Positions 839 through 60,105 are shown, counted from the first letter of the whole stretch. The stretch is DNA of 62,559 nt, filler included, from Basidiobolus ranarum (GCA_040143965.1; 23 parts of 23 records of this genome joined end to end with filler, not necessarily neighbours in it); one strand, 5' to 3'. The notes: a model not told the origin generated them from the letters alone. Program-made: numbers and translations.

Positions 839-1225
839 TTATTTACAACTTGGGTTATCCATGCAATTTTCACCAACATCATTGCATATAGTTTTACTAC
901 CTGCCACGACACAGTTTAGTCCATGATTTCTCTTGTAGGTGCATCCACATTGGTTGAAGTAGTAAGTTGTTCCAAGATGCTTCAATGCTGATTCGACAGC
1001 AACTGCTCTATTATTGGCATCATCACATTCTTTGCCAGCACTAACGCAATTCAATACCCAAGCAAAGTAAGAACCTCCGCTATCGTTCTGGATTCCTTTA
1101 TAGCAATGCATCCCCTTGGCGCTAAGCTGCTGAAAGCACTTTCGTGGCTGATCGGCACTGGCGGTTACTGTTCCGGTAAGGGCAACGGCAAAGAAAGCAA
1201 GAGTAGCAAAGTTAAGGCCAAGCAT
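839..1225 (-). CDS. Small secreted cysteine-rich protein, 128 aa, 10 Cys
   Basis: ATG start, hydrophobic signal peptide (MLGLNFATLAFFAVALTGTVTA), even Cys count, TATAAAA about 70 nt upstream (1296-1302, minus strand). Confidence 0.85.
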   Translation of the reverse strand: MLGLNFATLAFFAVALTGTVTASADQPRKCFQQLSAKGMHCYKGIQNDSGGSYFAWVLNCVSAGKECDDANNRAVAVESALKHLGTTYYFNQCGCTYKRNHGLNCVVAGSKTICNDVGENCMDNPSCK

Positions 1226-5366: not shown

Positions 5367-5466
5367 NNNNNNNNNNNNNNNNNNNNNNNNNNNNNNNNNN
5401 NNNNNNNNNNTTAATTAATTAANNNNNNNNNNNNNNNNNNNNNNNNNNNNNNNNNNNNNNNNNNNN

Positions 5467-7275
5467 TTAATATTTTATTAAAGCTATTATCTTTGTATGT
5501 ATTTGTGATACTCCTGCCATCTGTAAACTTGGAGGTTTTTGCGGGCCCAATGCACTTTCTTGCTGTAGATTTTGTCAAATCAATGGTGTTTACTCTATCA
5601 GGCATATGCATTACTACTATCTATATACAACACTAAACTCCATGATTTTACTATCAAGAGCCCAGTCAGATTTAAACATGATCACTGATATCAACTCACC
5701 AAATAGTCAGTCTAACATCAAAATTGGTATTAGCCGTAAGCCTAAGATTATATTGCTAAAGGTGATCAGCTGGAGCTAGAGCTTCCTATTAGGCACTATG
5801 CACTTACTTCTCAACAACATTCCAATACTACTTACTCAGCAATATAGTGGAAAATTCAATATGAATGAGGCATTTGAGATAGGATCAAAGTTTGAATCAA
5901 TAGAGAAGATGCTTGAAAACATCAAGATACAATCATATTTTACCAGGACTAACCTCAATATTCACTCATCTAGGTGTTTATTCAAATGCAAAGACTGGAA
6001 GTATTGGATTTGCATATTATCAAGTGGAATTTTGAAAAGATTTCTGCCTGATAAGTATTGGCAACATTTAGAGTTGTTTGTCAATATTGTTAATATACTC
6101 TTACAGCATCAACTCACATTGGCAGATCTCAGGCCGATACAGCAACTGTGCGAAGATTTTGTAATTGGATATGAAAAACTTTATTACAGGCTTAAAGAAG
6201 ATAGACTGAATCTAGTCCAGTATTCAATACATTCCCTGCTACATTTTTCACAATGCTTAGAGATTATAGGGCCTTGATATACAATCTGAGAGTTCCCAAT
6301 GGAGCGTACCTACGGTGAAATGATGCTTTGTGTGAAATTTTCAGTATTACCATATGTTAATCTGATTAACAATGTATCAGCTAAATCAATGATGGATGTA
6401 ATGTGATGGGTTAAGGAGACTCCAGGGTATATTCACCTGCCAACAAAGGGCTCTTTTCAATGTGCTCATGGATTTTTGAATTTTTGAGCACAATAACAGC
6501 CACAAAGCCCAATCCATGGACACAGAGGATGTACCTCTACAATTGGACTAATTTGCTTGGGTGATAATATGATGGTATTTTTAGGAAAGCTGCAAGACAG
6601 ATTCTTAGTGAGAGAGATCAAGACATGCATTATTGTTGTTTTAGCCATGGGGTAATCTATTCCAGCAGTAACATATCGACTTGTGGCAGGACATTTGTTG
6701 ACTACAAGTCAAGGATATATTGACTGATGCTTTATGAAAATTTGCCAAAATCCAAGAGCTTATTCTCATTGTGAATGGTAACAAGAGTCAGCTCTTTGCC
6801 AAGTGTGAGTGCTATTCAAAATTTCAGATGCTTAGCAATTTTTCCACAGTTAGTTTGCTGGTACAGCATGTTGATGTTGTTGAGTTATGTCTAATCAGTC
6901 AAGTATGTGCATATGTAGACACTAAACACAACAAGATTCTTGTATTTTTTGATTCACATTATGGCTGGAATACAAAACCCAAAATATCTAAATAAAGGCA
7001 TGCAAATTAATTTGAATTCCTACAGCAGTAAACCCAGTAATTTGCCATTTGACAACTATATTTTTGCAAAAATTGCCAGATATTGAATAACACATGCCAA
7101 ATTTGAGGATCAATATTTCAACATGTATAAATACCATCAAAATACTGTCAAGAAACCACTGTCACACCATCAAAATCCCTGGCAGAATGCAAGCAACTAA
7201 TATTGTGACTACTCAGTGATAGTTTTGCTCTTATGGCCGGTGGATCAGATCCAGATCAAATCAATTTTATTTTTG
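5467..7275 (+). mobile_element. CMC/EnSpm (CACTA-type, Transposase_21-like) transposase relic and 3' region
   Basis: Motifs FKCKDWKYW, LPDKYWQHLELFV, FVIGYEKLYY, IHSLLHF..CLEIIGP and EFPMER; in-frame stops. Confidence 0.8.
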
Positions 7276-8774: not shown

Positions 8775-9881
8775 ATGAACAACCCTATGCTGAGCGCTGT
8801 TTCATCGCATATGATTACTAAACCATTACCTACTCCTATCCACACATTGATGGAGCAGTTTGCCAACGGTAAGAACAACACCGCCAACGACGCACACGAG
8901 TTTGCTCAGGTATTCCCCACCGACTATCTCAGCAACAGCGATAACGACGCCGAACACGTCCACAACGGCCACTACGACAACTCTAACATCTCTGACACCC
9001 ACAATAGCGTCAGTGAGGACGAGTTTCTGATGAACTACAGTTTTGGCTCCAATGTCCCCACCCAACCTACCTTTACTCATGACATGATAGCTCAAGCCCC
9101 TCCTTATGCTTTCGATAGCCGCTTGGCCTCTAATAAGTTCGATTGGGGCAACTTCCATGACGGTCAGATGCCCATGAATTCTATGCCGATGCTGGTCCAT
9201 AATACTCCCGATGCCACTTCGCAACGACGCTCAAGTCTTCCGGGGAACGGGGAAACCACCGATTTCCCTGCTATTACCGATTTAAATCCCTCACGAAGAC
9301 GAGTATTCTCCTGGGCGGATATGAACCACTCGAACTACTTCGATTCAGATATGGACTTTTCCCAATCTGTACGTAGATCCTCAGTGAGTATTCCATTACA
9401 GAATATGCGTAATCAAGCCTATCTGGACACCTACACAGCGAAGGATTCGGATCATTTGACTGTTAGCCAACCAAGCCCCAGCCGCAACTCTTTCCCACTA
9501 GATGATGATCTATCAAACTCACCCTCCTTTCCATCCGAGGATGCATTCAAGAACAAACCCAAAAATAAGAAATTCCGAGGGACTGATGGTAGCACTCCGG
9601 TTAAAAAGGGTATAAACGGTCACAACGAAGGAGAGGAGCCAGAGGTACAAACCGTAGTCGAACGTCGTCTAAATCGAAGACGTGAAAGGAACCGATTGGC
9701 TGCTCGTCGAAGTCGCGAAAAACGTACTCAATTTTTGCATGATCTAGAGGGGTTAAATGATTCACTTCGTAGTGAGAATAATGCGTTGAAGGGGAAGCTT
9801 TGCGAAGTATTGCGCGAGTTGGAGGTACTACGGAGTGGTGTAGTTGGTGTTACCGCTGAGAGTGACTCAAGTCGTCGATAA
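8775..9881 (+). CDS. bZIP transcription factor, 368 aa
   Basis: C-terminal basic region RRERNRLAARRSREKR followed by Leu heptads; intronless ORF with ATG start. Confidence 0.93.
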   Translation: MNNPMLSAVSSHMITKPLPTPIHTLMEQFANGKNNTANDAHEFAQVFPTDYLSNSDNDAEHVHNGHYDNSNISDTHNSVSEDEFLMNYSFGSNVPTQPTFTHDMIAQAPPYAFDSRLASNKFDWGNFHDGQMPMNSMPMLVHNTPDATSQRRSSLPGNGETTDFPAITDLNPSRRRVFSWADMNHSNYFDSDMDFSQSVRRSSVSIPLQNMRNQAYLDTYTAKDSDHLTVSQPSPSRNSFPLDDDLSNSPSFPSEDAFKNKPKNKKFRGTDGSTPVKKGINGHNEGEEPEVQTVVERRLNRRRERNRLAARRSREKRTQFLHDLEGLNDSLRSENNALKGKLCEVLRELEVLRSGVVGVTAESDSSRR

Positions 9882-22803: not shown

Positions 22804-23244
22804 TTATTGACAGTCGTTTTGGGCTTCAGTAAAAGCAGCGCATCCAAAATCTTGAGCTTGAGCAACTCGACGACCAACCATACCTGGACCATCCCATGAC
22901 CAGCCAGTCGTACATCGTCGTTTAATGAAGTAGGTAGCTTTAGGATTACTGTTGATACAGGCATTGACCATACATTGCTGGAAATCCTGATCACAATTCG
23001 TTTTGAGTGAGTTGCAAGTGCCATAGCACTCCTCCTTAATACTGCAACAACCATCCATTATGCTTTTCTCTTTTCCTTCAAGATTGGGAGCTCCACATGC
23101 TTGAGCAGTACTAACAAGTTCAGATGGGTCACCGGAGGTGTCGCATGTAGGTGGAGGAGATCCCTCTGGTATCTCTTGTGACTGAGCGGAAATGCTGAAT
23201 AGCGCAAGGGCTCCGAACATGAGAAGAAACTTGTACTGTTGCAT
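22804..23244 (-). CDS. Secreted group XII phospholipase A2-like protein, 146 aa, catalytic HD replaced by KE
   Basis: Signal peptide; CG..CCSIKEECYGTC..KTNCDQDFQQCMVNAC..C..FGCAAFTEAQNDC follows the PLA2G12 Cys pattern CCxxHDxCYxTC..K..CD..F..C...C..GC..Y..SQ..AC. Confidence 0.8.
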   Translation of the reverse strand: MQQYKFLLMFGALALFSISAQSQEIPEGSPPPTCDTSGDPSELVSTAQACGAPNLEGKEKSIMDGCCSIKEECYGTCNSLKTNCDQDFQQCMVNACINSNPKATYFIKRRCTTGWSWDGPGMVGRRVAQAQDFGCAAFTEAQNDCQ

Positions 23245-32735: not shown

Positions 32736-35358
32736 TAATACTGCATATCTCCATCTATCTCACCAAGAAGTCTGTCTTGCAGCTTTCCTAAAAATACCAT
32801 CAGATTATCACACAAGCAAATTAGTCCAATTATAAAGGTACTTACTTTGTGTCCATGGATTGGGCTTTGTTGCTCTTATTCTATTCAAACAATGCAAAAA
32901 TCCATGAGCACATTGAAAAAAGCCCTTTGTTGGAAGGTTAATATAGTCTGTAGTCTCCTTAACCCATTCCATTACATCAATCACTGATTTTGCTGATACA
33001 TTGTTAATCAGATTAGCATATGGTAATACTGACAATTTCACACAGAGCATCATTTCACCATAGGTGCACTCCATTGGGAACTAACAACATCAATATGTTT
33101 TACATGCAAACCAAGGGTGGAACTATTGCTAAACATTGGAGATTGGAATAGCACTGATGCTTGGCAAAGAGCTGACTCTTTTTACCATTTGCAATGAGAA
33201 TAAGCTCTTGGATTTTGGCAAATTTCTATAAAGAATTCAGCCAACATATCCTCAACTTGCAGTCAAGATATTTCTAGCCACAAGTAGATATATCATTACC
33301 TAGATAGATTACTCCATGGCTAAAACAATAACAATGCATATTTTGATCTATCTCACTAAGAAGTCTCTCTTGATGCTTTTCTAGAAATACCATCAGATCA
33401 TGACACAAACCAATTAGTCTAAATTATATAGGTACTTACTCTATGTCCATGCATTGGGTTTTGTTACTGTTATTGTACTCAAACAATGCAAAAACTCATG
33501 AGAACATTGAAAAGAGCCCTTCATTGGAAGCTTAAACCAGTCTGAGTCATCATAAATCATTTCATTACATCCATCACTAATGTTGCTGATACATTGCTAA
33601 TCAGATTAGCATGTAGTGATACTGACAATTTCTTGTGGAACATCATTTCACTGCAAGTGCACTCCATTGGCAACTCCCAAAATGTATAGCAAGGGCCTAT
33701 ATTCTCAAAGCATTGTGAAAAATGCAGAAGGGAATGTATTAAATGCCAGCATAGATTCAGTCTATCTTCTTTGAACCAGTGATCATGTCTTTCATATTCA
33801 AATACAGAATCTTTGCCCAGTATCTGTGTCTACCGGAGATCTACCAGTGTGAGTTGATGCCATGAGAAAGTATTAACAATATTTACAAACAACTCTCAAT
33901 GTTGCCAGTATTTATCAGGCAGATAACCTTTCAAGATTCCGGTGGAATACAAACAAATCCAATACTTCCAGACTTTGTATTTGAAAAACACCTAGATGAG
34001 AGGATACTGATGGGAGTGCTGGTAAAATATGATGGAATCTTGATGTTTTCAAGCATATTCCCAATTGATTCAAACTTTGATCCTATCTCAAATGGCTCAT
34101 TCAGATTCAATTTCCACTATACAGCGGCATAAGTAGTATTAGTATGTTATTAAATAGTAAGTGCACAGTACCTAATGGGAAGCTCCAGCTCCAGCTGATC
34201 CCCTTTAGCAATACAATCTTATGCTTACAGCTAATCCCAAGTTTGATGTTACACTGACTATTTGGTGAATTGTTATCAGTGAGCATGTTGCACTCTGAGT
34301 GTGCTCTTGACAGTAAGATGAAGGAGCTAAGTGTTGTAGCTGAATAGTAGTAATGTTTATTCCTGATAGAGTAAACTCCATTAAATTGACAAAACCTAGA
34401 GTAAAATAATGCATTGGGCATATGGTAACCTCCAAGTTTACTGATGGCAAGAGTGTCACCAATACACACAATTATAATAGATTGAAAAGCTATTCACCTT
34501 CTGAACCCCATTAGACAACCACTCAAATACTGCAGTCAAAGGCTCCAAGAAGCTATCTATAAGCACTGGTGTTTTAAGCCCAGATATTATAGATAGTGTC
34601 ACTATATTATGACTCTTTTACCATTCAGAATAAGGGAGAATCAAGTTAATTAAAATAATGGCCAGCAAGCCTTTCCAATGGTATACTTCTTTAGTGAGGA
34701 ATCATCCAGAGCATATGCAAATGTGTGATTGTATGTGCTCTGAAAGAAACCTTGCCTTTCAGATTCTGGTGGTGATATTGATCAAGTATTTTGGTAATAC
34801 CATCAGCTTTACAGTAAGTGCTTTGGTAAGGATCAATAAACTATATTTAGGTGATTGCATTCGAACTATAAGACAGGGTATCAATGGTATGTATGCTAAA
34901 TATGAGCAATATTTACCTGATTCCATGATTGCCTATTGTATGCAAACAGTGCATGACTTCAGGTTTTTCAGATCTGTGGTGAAAGCAAATACAACCACTA
35001 GGACATGAATGTAGTTCAATTACCAAATAATTATAAGTCACATAATTGACAAGTGTTTTCCTCTTATACCAGGTCTGTGGCAAGCAACAGTTGCCAATCA
35101 ACTGTGGTTAAAGTGTAAGAAAACAATAAACATCCGGATGCTAAGATATAATTGAACTCTCCAATACTCAATTATCCAAGCTGCTTCCTTTACCATAAGT
35201 GCAATGAGTGGACTAATGCTTGTGCATAACAAAACCATTGTCTTCTTATTCATCTTCAGATACACTAACATCAGTACTGGAATTACCCAGGTCAACATCT
35301 AGCAGCATTTCCTCAACATTGTCTGTTCTTACTGGTTTGACCAAAGTTGCATTTCTAC
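32736..35358 (-). mobile_element. CMC/EnSpm transposase relic
   Basis: IGDTLAISKLGGYH.PNA..SRFCQFNG, GTVHLLFNNI and FPMEC motifs; reverse complement of the 5467-6800 type sequence. Confidence 0.8.
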
Positions 35359-41619: not shown

Positions 41620-42878
41620 AAGTTTTGTTGAAACCACCCAAATATAGATTATTGATCCAATACCAAAGTACTCAGGGAAAAGCTGATGGTATTACCAATG
41701 TACTCAATGGATATCACTATCAAAATTTGAAAAATTCAAGCCTTCTTTGAGAACACATATGATTATGCATTAGCATTGGCTCTGGATGGTTTCTTACCGC
41801 ACAAATATAGTGCTGTAATGGCTTGCCAGCCAATAGTTTCAGTTAACATAAATCTTGCTCCTTCTGAAGGGTATTAGACTCCTAATATTTTGATACTATC
41901 CATCATATCTGGACCTAAATCACCAGTGCTTATAGGTAGCTTCTTGGAGCATTTGATTGTGGAATTTGAATGCTTATCTCATTGGGTTCAGATGGGTGAA
42001 TATTTTATTAAAGCTGATATCATTGTATGTATTAGTGACACACCTGCCATCAGTAAGCTTGGAGGTTTTCATGGGCACAATGCACTATCTTGCTGTAGAT
42101 TTTGTCAAATCAATGGTGTTTACTCAATCAGGCATACACAATACTACTATCCAAATACAATACTAAACTCCATGATTTTACCACCAAGAGCCCATCAGAT
42201 TTCAACATGCTCACTGATGTCAATTCACCAAATAGTCAGTCTAACATCAAACTTAGTATTAGCAGTAAGCCTACGATCATATTGCTAAAGGGGATCAGAT
42301 GGAGCCAAAGCTTCCAATTTGGTACTATGCACTTACTAGTTAATAACATTCCAATAATCATAAGTATTGGCAACATTAGGAGTTGTTTGTAAATATTGTT
42401 GATATATTCCTGTTATATCAACTCACATTGGCAGTTCTCATGCAGATAAAGTAACTGTGCAAAGACTTTATAGTTGGATATGAAAAAGTTTATTACAGGT
42501 TTCAAGAAGATAAATAGATTCTATGCCAGTATTCAAGACATTCTCTGCTACCTCTTACACAATGCTGGGAGATTATAGGCCCTTGCTCTATATTCTGTGA
42601 GTTCCCAATGGAGTGCACCTGCAGTGAAATGATGCTCCATGTGAAATAGTCAGTATTACTGTATGTTAATCTGATTACCAATGTATCAGCATAATCAGTG
42701 ATGGATGTAATGCACTGGGTGAAGAAGACTGTAGTTTATATTAACCTTCCAACAAAGAGCTCTTTTCAATGTGCTCATGGGTCTTTTCATTGTTTGAGCA
42801 CAATAACAGTAACAAAGCCCAATCTATGGACACAGAGTAAGTATCTCTATAATTGGGACTAATTTGTGTGTGTGATAA
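41620..42878 (+). mobile_element. CMC/EnSpm transposase relic
   Basis: ALALDGF, IISGPKSP..SFLE, DTPAISKLGGFHGHNALSCCRFCQING and EFPMEC motifs. Confidence 0.85.
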
Positions 42879-43626
42879 GCTTGTTGAAGTTTAACACCTT
42901 TATCATATTTGTTATCTCTATCCTTATGCACCTAACCATTATGTATTTCACTTATCAGTTGGTTACATTCTATATTGAAATACCATTACACTGAAAATTG
43001 GAACATATATTATTTGTATATGTGGATAATATGAGAATTAGCAATTCAATGTTGGAAATTTCAAACTTGTCCAAACTGCCCCAAATATAGCTCATTTTAC
43101 TCCTACATATGTTCTGGGTACAACTCCAGTGTTAGTTTTCTGTATTTCCATCAAAATGTATAAATGCTTTATTTCTGAACGATAAATAATTATTTCTCAA
43201 AGTGATTCACAACTCCACTTTTCTATGTTGAAATTAGGTAAATAGCAACTCATTATTTAGTAGTTAGCTAATTCATATTCTGACTATTTAGTACTCATTT
43301 CTGTCATTCAAAAACATGTGTTTATTGCTCTAATTGATAGAAATATCAATTAGATCACTTTTACCAATTTTCACCATTTTCTCAAAACTTCTCCTAATCA
43401 CCTCAAATTTTCACCCATGCTTAACAGGCATGTTTTCTATGTTCTAAGCATGTCCAATAATCCTACTTTATAGTAAACTATAAATAGGACATATTCAATT
43501 CAATAAAACTTATGTGTCTAATTCACNNNNNNNNNNNNNNNNNNNNNNNNNNNNNNNNNNNNNNNNNNNNTTAATTAATTAANNNNNNNNNNNNNNNNNN
43601 NNNNNNNNNNNNNNNNNNNNNNNNNN

Positions 43627-43946
43627 AGCTCACCCAGTCGTCGGCCAAATGCCACTTCATCTTCTTGACTGAACTCCTGCTCACGGAAAAATACAACACC
43701 ACGCTCAGCAGCTAGAGCTAAGAGATCCTCAAGCTGGGCATCGGTCAGCTTAGCCAACTGTAGGCCTTCAATTTCAGTTCCAATGGAAGGAGTCAGGTCC
43801 GTACGCTTGGTCGCCACATCCAACAAGTTCTTATATTCAGGGTGAGCATTAAATCCTTGAATATATTTAGGGTTGCGATACTTATTGACAGAGTTATTGG
43901 AGATGTTGTCGTTGGAAGTAGTGTGCTCTTGGTTAGTAACAGTCAT
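43627..43946 (-). CDS. TauD/TfdA-family alpha-ketoglutarate-dependent dioxygenase, N-terminus (3' truncated)
   Basis: DLTPSIGTEIEGLQL..L..LAAERGVVFFREQ, as in fungal sulfonate dioxygenases. Confidence 0.9.
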
Positions 43947-44636: not shown

Positions 44637-45883
44637 CTAATTAGAGTTGTAAACTAAAAGATTAGGAGTATTTCCTCTCAACCCGGTAATAACATTCTTG
44701 GTAGCCCTGGCTGAAAGAGCGTCATAGAGAGCCTGTGGTGAGTTAAATCCTCCCTGTGCCAAATAGAGAGCGGCAACTCCGGCAACATGAGGGCTAGCCA
44801 TACTGGTACCCGAGATCTTCTTGGTAGAAGTGGTACCTCCAATCCACGCAGATGTGATATCCTGACCGGGAGCAGCAATTGTAACGCATTCACCATAGTT
44901 GGTAAAGCTAGCAGCAGTATCAGAGATTGTAGTGGCGGCTACAGTATAAGCACCTGCAGCATTGGCCGGTGATACATTACAAGCATCTTGACTCTCATTA
45001 CCAGCTGCTACAATGAAGCTGACACCCGCTTGTACGGCGGAATCTACAGCCTGTTTTAGTGCCTCACTGTTGCCACCTCCAAGTGACATATTAGCCACAC
45101 TCTTCCTGCCTGAACTTCTAGCTCTTTGAGCTACCCAGTTAATACCAGAAATAATTCCAGAAGTACTACCACTACCAGCACCACTTAGCACCTTAACACC
45201 GATAAGATTGACTCTCTTGGCAACACCATAAGTGTTACCTCCGACAGTACCAGCCACATGGGTACCATGACCGTTAAGATCATCAGTAGCTTCACCACTG
45301 ATAAAGCTTACAGGGAGAGTAGCTCTTCCACCGAAGTCTGAATGTCTAACATTAATTCCAGTATCAATGATGTAGACATCCACACCTGCGCCTGCATTGT
45401 CAGGATAGTTATATGGAGCATTAGGATTTCTGGTCCTTTGAGAGATTCTGGGTAAGCCCCAACTGGGTGGACTATTTTGAGTACCAGAAATAGTGAAAAT
45501 TTGTTCAGCTTCAATATATTCAACATCCGCGTTTCCTTTAAGATCCTTAACCAAAGACTCACTCAGTACACCAGCGTAGGCATTAAAGCTAGCTAGTGAG
45601 AATCTACTCTTTATTTCATTCTTGAGAGTATTGTTTCCACTTCGACCACGGTTATACTGATCCAATTTAGTCTTCAATAGCTGGTCAACTTGCAACAGGG
45701 TAGATGTTAGTAGATGAATTTGAAAGTAGTCTACATGAATGAAATACCTTTGTTCGCATCGGCAGTGTTTTTAATCTTAACAATATAGCGATTGGCAACC
45801 TCTGGTGCTTGAGCTTCTGAGAATGGAATGGCAAGAGCAATAGCGAGCAAGGATCCTAGAGCAAAGTTGCGAATACTAACCAT
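44637..45883 (-). CDS. Secreted subtilisin (S8A, proteinase K-like) with I9 propeptide, ~395 aa; exons 45883-45748 and 45688-44637
   Basis: Signal MVSIRNFALGSLLAIALA; 59-nt GT-AG intron with a CTAAC branch site; catalytic motifs IIDTG, HGTH and GTSMASPH. Confidence 0.96.
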
Positions 45884-54406: not shown

Positions 54407-54506
54407 NNNNNNNNNNNNNNNNNNNNNNNNNNNNNNNNNNNNNNNNNNNNTTAATTAATTAANNNNNNNNNNNNNNNNNNNNNNNNNNNNNNNNNNNNNN
54501 NNNNNN

Positions 54507-54620
54507 GGAAGAAGGGGTGGAAGAGGAGGTGCAAAGAAGCCTAGTGGTGGTGGTGGTTTCTTCAGTAACCTCTTTGCAGGTGACCCAATTGTGCCCTACC
54601 TAAGCAGCCCCCACACATAG
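54507..54620 (+). CDS. C-terminus of a Gly-rich protein, probable upstream paralogue of the tandem family (5' truncated)
   Basis: GRRGGRGGAKKPSGGGGFFSNLFAGDPIVPYLSSPHT*; it and its 3' flank are homologous to 55945-56220. Confidence 0.65.
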   Translation, partial: GRRGGRGGAKKPSGGGGFFSNLFAGDPIVPYLSSPHT

Positions 54621-55278
54621 TCATATAGACCCAGATGGCAATTCAGAAACTTCCACTTTAATTCCATATATTGTTTCCTTTTGATGATAAATAAATTGGA
54701 ATCAATATTTAAGATTTATCGTATAGGAAAGAAAATATTAAATCCATCATTCTTGTAGATTCAGGTTTTTCGTGATCTACTTCTTCAATAGGATATATCC
54801 TACAATTATTGAAAATTTAAGTGGTATATGCTGATGATTGAAACCCACGATTAGTAGCTTACTCAAGGGCTATGATCATCTAACGAAACTATGTAACTTA
54901 TGAACACAAGTGTGGATGCCAACAAATCAATTCACCCGGCTATAAAGTAGAAAGTGTTAGGTAAGTACATATTCATGTATTACTATCAGTATTTGAAGAT
55001 CTTTACATATTTGCGTCCTAAATTTCTGATATTCGTATACAAGATAGGTTCATTAAAGCGTTTCACCCTTATATCCATCAGTGTTTACGAAACAATGTGG
55101 CAGATGCTTGTATATATGATACCCTAAGCGAGCCAATACTCAGCATAATTTTCATGACATTCCAGCCTACATGGTTGCTTATAAATAGAGATATCTGCGC
55201 ACAGAGCTATTCAGCTATTGTGGAATTACCATTAGCCATCCATCACCCTACTGTCACTCCCATCCCTCTCACACTATA

Positions 55279-55782
55279 ATGAAGAACCTCATCTGCTTGG
55301 TACTTAGTGTTGCTGCTTTGAAAATTGTCTCGGCTGCGCCCAATCCCGAGCCAATTTACTTTGATGGGGATGGTAGCGGTGGTGACCTTCTAGGACATGA
55401 CGACTGGAACGGTGATCGCAACTGGAATGGTAAAAGGCCTCTTCTTATTAGTCATGGCGATTGGAGCGGTGGCCGCGATTGGAATGGTAAAAGGCCTCTT
55501 CTTCTCAGTCATGGTGATTGGAATGGAGGTCGTGACTGGAATGGTAAAAGACCTGACGGCCCTCTTGGTCTTGGTGATTGGAACGGTGGCGACGACTGGA
55601 ATGGTAAAAGGCCCATTCTTATCAGTCATGACAATTGGAGAGATAATCGCGACTGGAATGGAAAAAGACCTGCTCTTATTAGTCATGATCGTTGGAACGA
55701 CGATGATGACTGGAATGGTAAAAGACCTGCTCCTATTGACCTTAGTGATCATGACAATTGGGATGAGAGTGATAGCGATTAA
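55279..55782 (+). CDS. Secreted repeat protein, candidate KEX2-processed multi-peptide precursor, 167 aa
   Basis: Signal peptide, AP-NP-EP dipeptides, six units of 19-20 aa ending WNGKR, acidic tail. Confidence 0.88.
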   Translation: MKNLICLVLSVAALKIVSAAPNPEPIYFDGDGSGGDLLGHDDWNGDRNWNGKRPLLISHGDWSGGRDWNGKRPLLLSHGDWNGGRDWNGKRPDGPLGLGDWNGGDDWNGKRPILISHDNWRDNRDWNGKRPALISHDRWNDDDDWNGKRPAPIDLSDHDNWDESDSD

Positions 55783-55944
55783 TGTGTTGCAGTTATCAGA
55801 GAAATTGGTCCATCTTGATAAAATGAAGACATGTGGTAATAAAAAACTTCAATTATTCAGGAATAAGGTTAATGTCGTATTGTTATTTTGCTCAGCATGA
55901 TATCAGCCTTTAAGCTCGCTGAAGAGTTAGTATAATTGGCACCG

Positions 55945-56067
55945 ATGTTTATTTACGGTGGAGGTGGAGGTGGTGGTGAAAGAAGAGTGGTAGCAGCGGC
56001 GGCAGTTACTGGTGTAACCTCTTTACATGTGGGATCATTTTTACCCTACCTTAGTACACTCCCATAA
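55945..56067 (+). pseudogene. Frameshifted relic of the family's Gly-rich C-terminal tail
   Basis: KKSGSSGGSYWCNLF in one frame and PYLSTLP* in another match KKPSGGGGFFSNLF..PYLSSPHT* at 54507-54620. Confidence 0.65.
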
Positions 56068-56779
56068 TTAGCCATGCAAAACCAGATGGTATTTCAGAAA
56101 CTGCTCTTAATTCCATTAACTGATCCCTTCTGATGATAAATAAACTGGAATCAATACTTTAATTTCATCACATAGTAATACATATACTAAATCCAACATT
56201 CTCATGTAGGTGATTTTTTTATCTACTTCTTTAATCTCTCTTAATAGGATTGTGATTATAGGGGAATTTTGTTAATGTTTGGAATACATGATCACTAATC
56301 TACCCAAGGACTTCAATCATCAAACACAACGGTATAGCTGATAGATTCGTCATATGTCTTCAGTATGAGCCAGATCGCCTCCATATGACCATATCCCAAA
56401 TTTCAGTGAGGGAGATTAGGTTACAAACCAATAAATTCATCTGATTACGAAATAAAAATAATTTAAAGTACATATTTATGTATTACTACAAGTACTTGAA
56501 GATCTCTACGTAATTGTATCCTAAAATCCTGACATTTGTACACGAGATTGGTTAACTAAGGCGTTTCACCCTTATAGCCATGAGTGTTTACGAAACAATG
56601 TGGCAGATGATTGTATCTATCATACTCCAAGTGAGCCTATTCAGCATAATCTTCTTGGCATTCGAATCTACATGGTTGTTGATAAATAGAAAGATTTGCG
56701 TATAGGGCTGTTTAGCTGTTGTGGAATTACCATTAGCCATCTATCACTTTACTTTAGCTTCCATCCCTTTCACACTGTA

Positions 56780-57124
56780 ATGAAGAACCTCATCTGCTTG
56801 GTACTTAGTGTTACTGCCTTGAAAATTGTCTCGGCTGCCCCCAATCCCGAGCCAATTTTCTTTGGCGGTGGTAAAGGTGGTTTACTTGGGGGACTGCTAG
56901 GTGGTGGTGGTGGTAGCGATGGCGGAAGTGGTAACGATGGCGGAGGTGATAATGGTAGTAACACAGATGGAGGCAATGGTCAAACTATAGTTGTACTTGG
57001 AGGCGGTCTTGGTGGTCCCGGTAGTTGGAATGGCAAAGGTCCTGGTGGTCCCGGTGGTTGGAATGGTAAAGGGCCTGGTGGTCCCGGTGGTTGGAATGGT
57101 AAAGGGCCTGGAGGTCCCGGTGGT
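56780..57124 (+). CDS. Secreted Gly-rich paralogue with (WNGKGPGGPGG)n repeats (3' truncated)
   Basis: First 26 aa nearly identical to the 55279 gene; three 33-nt repeats at 57026-57124; upstream region duplicated. Confidence 0.88.
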
Positions 57125-57224: not shown

Positions 57225-57468
57225 CGCTTTGGCCAAATGTATTGAAGAGGGAGTGAACCATATGTGGACTGTGTCAGCCATTCAACTTCACCGTTCAGCC
57301 CTTATTGTCTGTGACGAGGATGCTACTCATGAGCTCCACGTCAAGACAGTGAAGTACTTCAAGTCTATTGAACAAGTTCACGAGCAACTCATCGGTAAAG
57401 AGAATATCGACCTTAAGGGTTCTGTTAAACACTTTGACGCCGCTAGCTTCCAAGCCAAGGCTCTCTAA
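57225..57468 (+). CDS. NAG1: Glucosamine-6-phosphate deaminase, C-terminus (5' truncated)
   Basis: [45 protein letters not shown]. Confidence 0.93.
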
Positions 57469-59842: not shown

Positions 59843-60105
59843 NNNNNNNNNNNNNNNNNNNNNNNNNNNNNNNNNNNNNNNNNNNNTTAATTAATTAANN
59901 NNNNNNNNNNNNNNNNNNNNNNNNNNNNNNNNNNNNNNNNNNAACTGATGTTTCTAATTTCTTACACAAGGGTGAAGGGCGGAAGGGGGAAGAAAGGGGT
60001 AAAAATTGAACCAAGTTTAAATAAGAATAGAAGACTACTATATACACTACATGTACTGTGCCAAGTGTTTAAAACACTGGGACAACACTTTCCAAAGTAT
60101 GTAAC

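Follow-up and report, generated by a model that had tools for sequence, protein, structure and literature searches.

The open reading frame (ORF) at 55279-55782 on the plus strand, here named gene A, is a real and lineage-restricted gene as judged from its sequence features, and its product is predicted to be a secreted, cysteine-free, acidic, low-complexity protein rich in Trp, Asp, Gly and Asn. The window, that is, the whole stretch of DNA that was analysed, comprised 62,559 nucleotides (nt) from Basidiobolus ranarum (GCA_040143965.1). Most of the product of gene A is made up of six tandem units, each ending in Trp-Asn-Gly-Lys-Arg (WNGKR) and followed by Pro, and this block, WNGKR-P, is under constraint at the protein level. 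By its architecture, gene A is a candidate KEX2-processed repeat protein (KEP), and a KEP-type peptide precursor is the reading tentatively preferred here, with a probability somewhat short of even. Sequence comparison places gene A in a small, tandemly duplicated family of a Basidiobolus-like fungus, the second member being the truncated gene B on the same contig. The features of gene A are as follows:

55279-55782, plus strand: gene A coding sequence, 167 codons and TAA, uninterrupted, read as a single exon, standard code
55279-55335, plus strand: leader resembling a signal peptide (residues 1-19), cleavage proposed after V-S-A
55336-55353, plus strand: AP-NP-EP, three X-Pro dipeptides, identical in gene B
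55381-55725, plus strand: six tandem units of 19, 19, 19, 20, 19 and 19 residues, residues 35-149
55726-55779, plus strand: acidic tail of 18 residues, resembling a decayed half-unit, with the first Trp kept and WNGKR missing

The ORF and the 167-residue translation reported in the first-pass annotation were confirmed, and the pieces obtained by splitting the protein matched the strings listed there. A hidden intron was considered and dropped, as no canonical donor (GTAAGT, GTATGT or GTGAGT) was found inside the ORF. Five GTAAAA strings are present, one in each of five of the six Gly-Lys codon pairs, and the sole intron seen in this assembly opens with GTAAGT. Two other frames are open across the repeat (167 codons on the plus strand and 120-152 on the minus strand); among the frames open there, only the reported one begins with a signal-peptide-like leader kept in the paralogue.

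The leader, assessed by inspection and hydropathy, consists of Met-Lys, a hydrophobic core of 14 residues (mean Kyte-Doolittle value 2.73) and V-S-A. A short Gly/Asp stretch separates AP-NP-EP from the repeats. The composition of the mature part includes no hydrophobic stretch, and the product has no Cys, no N-glycosylation sequon and no hydrophobic C-terminus for a glycosylphosphatidylinositol (GPI) anchor. Asp, Gly, Asn, Pro and Ser account for 86 of the 148 mature residues, all six Lys of the mature protein fall in WNGKR, and nine Asn-Gly dipeptides are present. Asn-Gly is the dipeptide most prone to spontaneous deamidation, which gives a shift of +0.98 Da.

The unit consensus is P-L-L-I-S-H-D-D-W-N-G-G-R-D-W-N-G-K-R, with two D-W-N-G-x-R half-motifs per unit, and the W-x5-W spacing exists because the unit is doubled internally (D-W-N-G-G-R, then D-W-N-G-K-R). 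Cuts after each WNGKR give pieces of 53, 19, 19, 20, 19 and 19 residues, in addition to the acidic tail. Tandem Repeats Finder reported a period of 57 with 5.8 copies, 74% matches and a score of 306, and the repeat spacings were 57, 57, 60, 57 and 57 nt. With the units aligned on their C-termini, six of the 19 columns are invariant (W9, W15, N16, G17, K18 and R19), in agreement with the invariant W-x5-WNGKR claimed in the first-pass annotation, and Pro comes next after Lys-Arg in all six units. Twelve columns outside the two Trp and NGKR all vary, several of them with charge changes.

Between units, 22% of first, 27% of second and 35% of third codon positions differ, so the units are not fresh copies; the mean pairwise nucleotide difference between them is about 28%. 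Inside the invariant block the codon differences are synonymous only (Arg as AGG in three units and AGA in three, Gly as GGT in five and GGA in one). The 28 deviations from the consensus seen among the units were redistributed over random columns in 100,000 trials; a run of at least five invariant columns appeared in 0.046% of the trials (0.00046). This permutation result and the synonymous-only differences together place WNGKR-P under constraint as protein.

KEPs are delimited in silico in PMC6339444 by a signal peptide, no transmembrane segment and at least four fragments after in-silico dibasic cuts, and further by at least three similar repeats between KR, RR or KK sites that cover at least 15% of the length. 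In gene A, inspection and hydropathy indicate a signal peptide and no transmembrane segment, the six KR sites yield seven fragments, six W-x5-WNGKR units are present, and the repeats cover 115 of the 167 residues. The KEP-like architecture proposed in the first-pass annotation was thus borne out for every sequence feature in that definition. X-Pro and X-Ala dipeptides are described as the signature of Ste13 in the part of PMC6339444 used here, and the X-Pro dipeptides of gene A are suited to this enzyme. Trimming by Ste13, also proposed earlier, therefore fits the N-terminal AP-NP-EP but not the repeat junctions. No alpha-factor-like Ste13 signature follows each KR; the junctions read P-L, P-L, P-D, P-I, P-A and P-A, two of the six starting with X-Ala and none with X-Pro. 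According to the part of PMC7329392 used here, a survey of 1461 strains predicted more KEPs (43) in Basidiobolus meristosporus CBS 931.73 than in any other. B. meristosporus is the nearest relative found for the present DNA, through a deaminase on a neighbouring contig.

If gene A is a KEP-type precursor, the signal peptide would most likely be removed after V-S-A by signal peptidase, and a dipeptidyl aminopeptidase of the Ste13 type would trim AP-NP-EP. In the late secretory pathway, a kexin or a different basic-residue protease would cleave on the C-terminal side of Lys-Arg, at all six pairs or at some of them, and a Kex1-type carboxypeptidase would take off Lys-Arg. Five peptides of 17-18 residues would be released, with a net charge of -1 to -4, a Pro start and two Trp each, ending in W-N-G with a free carboxylate and not an amide; a longer N-terminal piece and the acidic tail would be released as well. 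Should these products be active, a classical cationic antimicrobial role is unlikely, since the predicted peptides are anionic.

Gene A lies on a contig that carries only genes A and B and no taxonomically informative gene. The features of this contig are the following:

54507-57124, no strand: contig bearing gene A, 2618 nt, the sole true genomic context, both ends being assembly breaks
54507-54620, plus strand: Gly-rich frame from the contig edge to a stop, containing RR and KK-Pro (stop-to-stop ORF 54459-54620)
54963-55363, plus strand: duplicated promoter, 5' untranslated region and leader block of gene A, with a copy at 56466-56864, before and into gene B
55180-55187, plus strand: TATA-like box (TATAAA at 55180), about 95 nt upstream of the ATG, putative function
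55838-55843, plus strand: AATAAA, 56 nt past the gene A stop, putative function
55936-56067, plus strand: Gly-rich frame of 43 codons downstream of gene A, behind stop codons, resembling the frame at 54507-54620
56780-57124, plus strand: gene B, cut by the contig end after 115 codons, sharing leader and AP-NP-EP with gene A ahead of a Gly-rich region
57005-57124, plus strand: gene B repeats, 33-nt period, at least three copies of the 11-residue G-P-G-G-W-N-G-K-G-P-G

Gene B starts 1501 nt downstream of the gene A start, and the two are 45% identical by tblastn (E 2.6e-22). Upstream, the duplication extends over some 800 nt that are 78-86% identical, with repeat blocks of 175 nt at 84% (D3) and 227 nt at 86% (D2) at a spacing of 1501-1503 nt. 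Identity between the genes amounts to 97 of 120 nt just upstream and 80 of 84 nt over the first 28 codons, with 55 of 57 nt identical in the leader (residues 1-19); past codon 28 it is about 31-35%, no better than random. In secreted-peptide gene families, the leader is expected to stay conserved while the body is replaced, as in this pair. For the repeats of gene B, Tandem Repeats Finder reported a period of 33 with 3.5 copies and 95% matches. In a six-frame scan of the whole window, the leader sequence was confined to genes A and B, and ten WNGK strings were found, six in gene A, three in gene B and one isolated beside stops.

The right-hand part of the frame at 54507-54620 aligns with 56000-56067, downstream of gene A. 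If coding, the first of these frames probably belongs to a third member of the family lying upstream, as its 3' end, and the frame at 55936-56067 may be a relic of an ancestral 3' coding part. The ATG of gene A has A at position -3. A search of the contig 54507-57124 against Rfam matched no RNA family.

No trustworthy relative of gene A outside the locus was found in protein and metagenome searches. Against Pfam, gene A matched no family, the sole row being ROKNT at E 0.44, under its cutoff. In a word-indexed search of 5.8 billion proteins, none of 2441 candidates for gene A reached E ≤ 0.1, and the search with the gene B protein gave none of 4853 candidates at E ≤ 1. The exact gene A protein was absent from a collection of 15 billion sequences. 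It was found letter for letter in the ESM Atlas, an entry that may come from the same assembly and is not independent proof. The annotated proteome of B. meristosporus is within the searched collections, as the deaminase match indicates, so that no detectable homologue is annotated there.

The full HMMER search of 1.84 billion representatives with gene A returned four matches at E ≤ 0.001 and none at 1e-10. Two were long bacterial Cna-B-like proteins (E 4.5e-6 and 5e-5, summed over short stretches), and a third was Lymnaea stagnalis CAL1531214.1 (E 4.8e-4, 29% identity, short repeat pattern only); all three were judged to be motif-level convergence. The fourth was a 151-residue metagenome 'hypothetical protein' from a 1056-nt contig, 37% identical by BLASTP, with 18-residue units of R-L-W-N-G-N-P-P-E-L-V-T-H-G-G; a genuine but remote relationship, Asn-Pro standing in for Lys-Arg, and a translated satellite are both possible. 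A metagenome scan with the gene A protein gave 179 pattern matches, none of which was confirmed. Scanning with a degenerate DNA pattern for three WNGK gave 94 loci, none of them encoding WNGK and then Arg/Gly-Pro in a frame free of stops. The WNGK frame is interrupted by stops at most of these loci, and at the most similar-looking one (L060) WNGK is out of frame with the real ORF. The Lymnaea protein itself has 1238 residues and more than 20 units of E-K-R-P-S-F-H-S-W-S-G-K-R, and it looks like an unannotated multi-copy amidated-neuropeptide precursor with KR followed by Pro.

Structure prediction with AlphaFold2 (AF2) from the single sequence gave a predicted local distance difference test (pLDDT) value of 45.5, with none of the 167 residues at 70 or above and no confident fold, an outcome compatible with a disordered precursor. 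Short strands were placed, at low confidence, on L-L-I-S and D-W-S-G. The model in the Atlas (pLDDT 0.54, low confidence) aligns to beta-helix proteins with TM scores of 0.60-0.64 by query. The nearest named Atlas cluster by language-model features was that of insect apidaecin multi-peptide precursors, a weak lead at 0.77, under the bar of the tool.

As described in the parts of PMC6339444, PMC7329392 and PMC9769878 used here, fungal KEPs (the yeast alpha-factor precursor, Ustilago Rep1, Candida Ece1/candidalysin and the predicted KEPs of B. meristosporus) are like gene A in having a signal peptide, KR-ended units and repeats that dominate the protein. Validated Agaricomycete KEP peptides also have Trp at or near the C-terminus, according to the same part of PMC9769878. 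Gene A, a KEP candidate by architecture, is set apart from this group by the Pro directly after every KR, where the classical design is KR-X-Ala or KR-X-Pro, by a tandem paralogue that lacks dibasic sites, and by having no annotated sequence relative. The multi-copy KEP type S-3 of Basidiobolus, known here by its description in part of PMC7329392, is Tyr- and Asp-rich and not Trp-rich, and so is probably a different family; type S-3 of B. meristosporus was rejected on this description as the family of gene A.

Insect apidaecin precursors (Pfam PF00807) resemble gene A as secreted arrays of short peptides. Their X-Pro/X-Ala spacers are trimmed by dipeptidyl aminopeptidase, and apidaecins are cationic and Pro-rich. 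Gene A, in contrast, has no Pfam match, its predicted peptides are anionic, and the feature score lies under the lead bar. Bacterial Cna-B-type repeats contain a local W-x-D-x-x-[ND]-x-[DN]-G-K-R-P string similar to unit 6 of gene A; Cna-B domains have about 90 residues compared with the 19 of the unit, and the Cna-B Pfam model did not match gene A even at E up to 10. Structural repeat proteins of the G-P-G-G-X type form a silk-, elastin- and plant glycine-rich-protein-like class. This class resembles the units of gene B and the Gly-rich frames at 54507-54620 and 55936-56067, and homology search gave no support for membership of gene B in it. Gene A differs from the class in that most Gly are replaced by Asp, Arg, His or Leu and Lys-Arg is gained.

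Several points weigh against a KEP-type precursor. Copies of alpha-factor are near-identical, and the units of gene A differ far more in charge and sequence. The repeats could be uniform through recent expansion and not selection, a possibility countered by the pairwise difference between units given above. Within the unit, conservation falls on hydrophobic or turn-forming positions and variation on polar ones, a distribution resembling that of a repeat fold. The first-pass annotation had also looked to conservation of KR in orthologues; gene B, the only relative available and a paralogue rather than an orthologue, reads W-N-G-K-G-P, with Lys-Gly, in all three visible repeats and holds no dibasic site in its 115 visible residues. 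The Arg codons of gene A (AGG/AGA) and the Gly codons of gene B (GGG/GGT) are one base apart. The core of the family is hence WNGK-x-P and not KR. Finally, the caution raised earlier about Pro after every KR held up: all six sites of gene A have Pro at P1', which, in the words of one review, 'appears to disturb Kex2 processing' (PMC6624476).

An alternative is an intact, secreted, acidic, beta-turn-rich repeat protein of the wall or surface, or one with a role in adhesion or metal binding, in which W-N-G-K-x-P is a structural turn and KR is incidental and shielded from kexin by Pro. This explanation is a substantial possibility, although doubtful on balance. It agrees with the Pro at P1' and with gene B, whose three repeats keep W-N-G-K and Pro yet have Gly for Arg, in a G-P-G-G context typical of structural glycine-rich proteins. 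Leu3, Ile/Leu4, Trp9 and Trp15 are conserved and hydrophobic, and Asn-Gly is a strong, classic type I' beta-turn, while polar positions vary; His-Gly...Trp is a copper site in the prion octarepeat. The AF2 strands and the alignment of the Atlas model to beta-helices would point the same way, both models being of low confidence. The invariance of Arg in all six units, with AGG/AGA variation, while adjacent positions change freely, argues against an intact protein, as do the lack of a confident fold in either model, the high content of Asp, Gly, Asn, Pro and Ser, and the absence of Cys, N-glycosylation sequon, GPI-type C-terminus and Pfam domain. A non-functional ORF, untranscribed or decaying and kept open by a coding-like minisatellite, is quite improbable. 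No relative in any database searched, the two further frames open across the repeat and the relic-like downstream frame, which suggests recent rearrangement, would be in line with it. Against it stand the leader conserved in the paralogue and confined to the reported frame, the TATA-like box, A at -3 and AATAAA in place, and a block invariant in protein with synonymous variation in DNA; the ESM Atlas entry also speaks against it, with the reservation already made.

Two further explanations share the precursor architecture and assign another fate to the peptides. Basidiobolus is rich in secondary-metabolite genes, and gene A could encode the precursor of a peptide synthesized by the ribosome and then modified post-translationally (RiPP), dikaritin-like, with the invariant Trp, Asn, Gly and Lys as cross-linking or tailoring sites. 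The KEP architecture and the two invariant Trp and Lys at fixed spacing are consistent with this, and dikaritin precursors such as that of ustiloxin have a signal peptide and Kex2-delimited repeated cores, as stated in the part of PMC7329392 used here. It is nevertheless very unlikely. The units, of 17-18 residues, are long and variable, and in Table 2 of the same source seven type S-3 KEPs of Basidiobolus are without a DUF3328 gene within 15 genes. The contig, only 2618 nt in length and holding just the two paralogues, shows no tailoring gene. The first-pass annotation had, at its boldest, likened gene A to an animal neuropeptide precursor, in which Gly-Lys-Arg directs amidation, giving W-N-amide ends and possibly host-peptide mimics. 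Basidiobolus is associated with vertebrate guts, Gly stands ahead of Lys-Arg in all six units, and animal amidated precursors, as represented by the Lymnaea protein with its ...S-W-S-G-K-R units, share with gene A the Trp-x-Gly-Lys-Arg unit ends and the Pro after KR. That match is weak, as its E value, identity and short repeat pattern indicate, and Gly is conserved in gene B with no dibasic site following, so Gly before Lys need not be an amide donor. The amidating enzyme, PAM, is missing throughout fungi according to one review (PMC6529398). The amidation proposal was not sustained and is regarded as extremely improbable.

The KEP reading can be extended to the origin of the gene, in a scenario that is unlikely. 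Gene A may represent the birth of a peptide precursor: an ancestral secreted Gly-rich structural repeat (W-N-G-K-G-P) would have gained a kexin site by a single GGG-to-AGG change, and, with promoter and leader left as they were, the new unit would then have multiplied and diverged. The outcome would be a vertebrate-gut fungus with a library of protease-protected 17-18-mers, with a Pro start and two Trp, acting on the host or on neighbouring microbes.

The window consists of 23 contigs of about 2.6-2.7 kb each, in slowly descending length, joined by 22 identical 100-nt spacers made up of N's around TTAATTAATTAA (positions 2634-2733, 5367-5466 ... 59843-59942); gene neighbourhoods across the spacers are therefore not real. 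The fungal origin assumed in the first-pass annotation was supported indirectly by the deaminase (NAG1 enzyme) on a neighbouring contig, a fragment of which was 92% identical to the protein of B. meristosporus CBS 931.73, compared with 77-79% for the next-best matches and 70-77% for other early-diverging fungi. The assembly thus comes from a fungus close to B. meristosporus, though a different strain from CBS 931.73. That contig (57225-59842) carries a tail-to-tail pair of glucosamine-6-phosphate deaminase genes. On the plus strand, 57225-57468 is a C-terminal fragment, 76% identical to the B. meristosporus protein, and its partner is a near-complete gene on the minus strand (exons about 58866-58810 and 58756-57935), 91% identical, with an intron of about 68 nt starting with GTAAGT.

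On other contigs, the ORFs at 5798-6277 (plus), 34107-34421 (minus) and 41992-42288 (plus), from three contigs, have common strings such as FCQ-NGVYSIR, and one of them gave a weak tnp2-type transposase match (E 0.0055, 16.4 bits, under the 28.6-bit cutoff); a single repeated mobile element is the probable source of all three fragments. Signal-peptide-like starts were seen in two small ORFs rich in Cys, at 839-1225 (minus) and 22804-23244 (minus); for the latter, group XII secretory phospholipase A2 matched at 26.4 bits, short of the 34-bit cutoff. A bZIP transcription factor at 8775-9881 (plus, E 3.2e-7), an S8 subtilase fragment at 44637-45089 (minus, E 1.8e-19) and the N-terminus of a TauD-family dioxygenase at 43575-43946 (minus, E 2.9e-9) were also identified.

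If the protein of gene A stays intact, it would simply be a further secreted orphan repeat protein, and its interest would be local only. In either case, an animal-like amidated neuropeptide in a fungus should no longer be claimed unless an amidating enzyme comes to light. Should the peptides be produced, gene A would represent a new KEP type from an early-diverging fungal lineage; none of the validated KEP examples named in the parts of PMC6339444, PMC7329392 and PMC9769878 used here comes from early-diverging fungi. It would also serve as a natural experiment on whether a Lys-Arg pair followed by Pro is cut by fungal kexins. The K-R-P and K-G-P paralogues, with the same leader, form a built-in comparison for the origin of peptide precursors from structural repeat genes.

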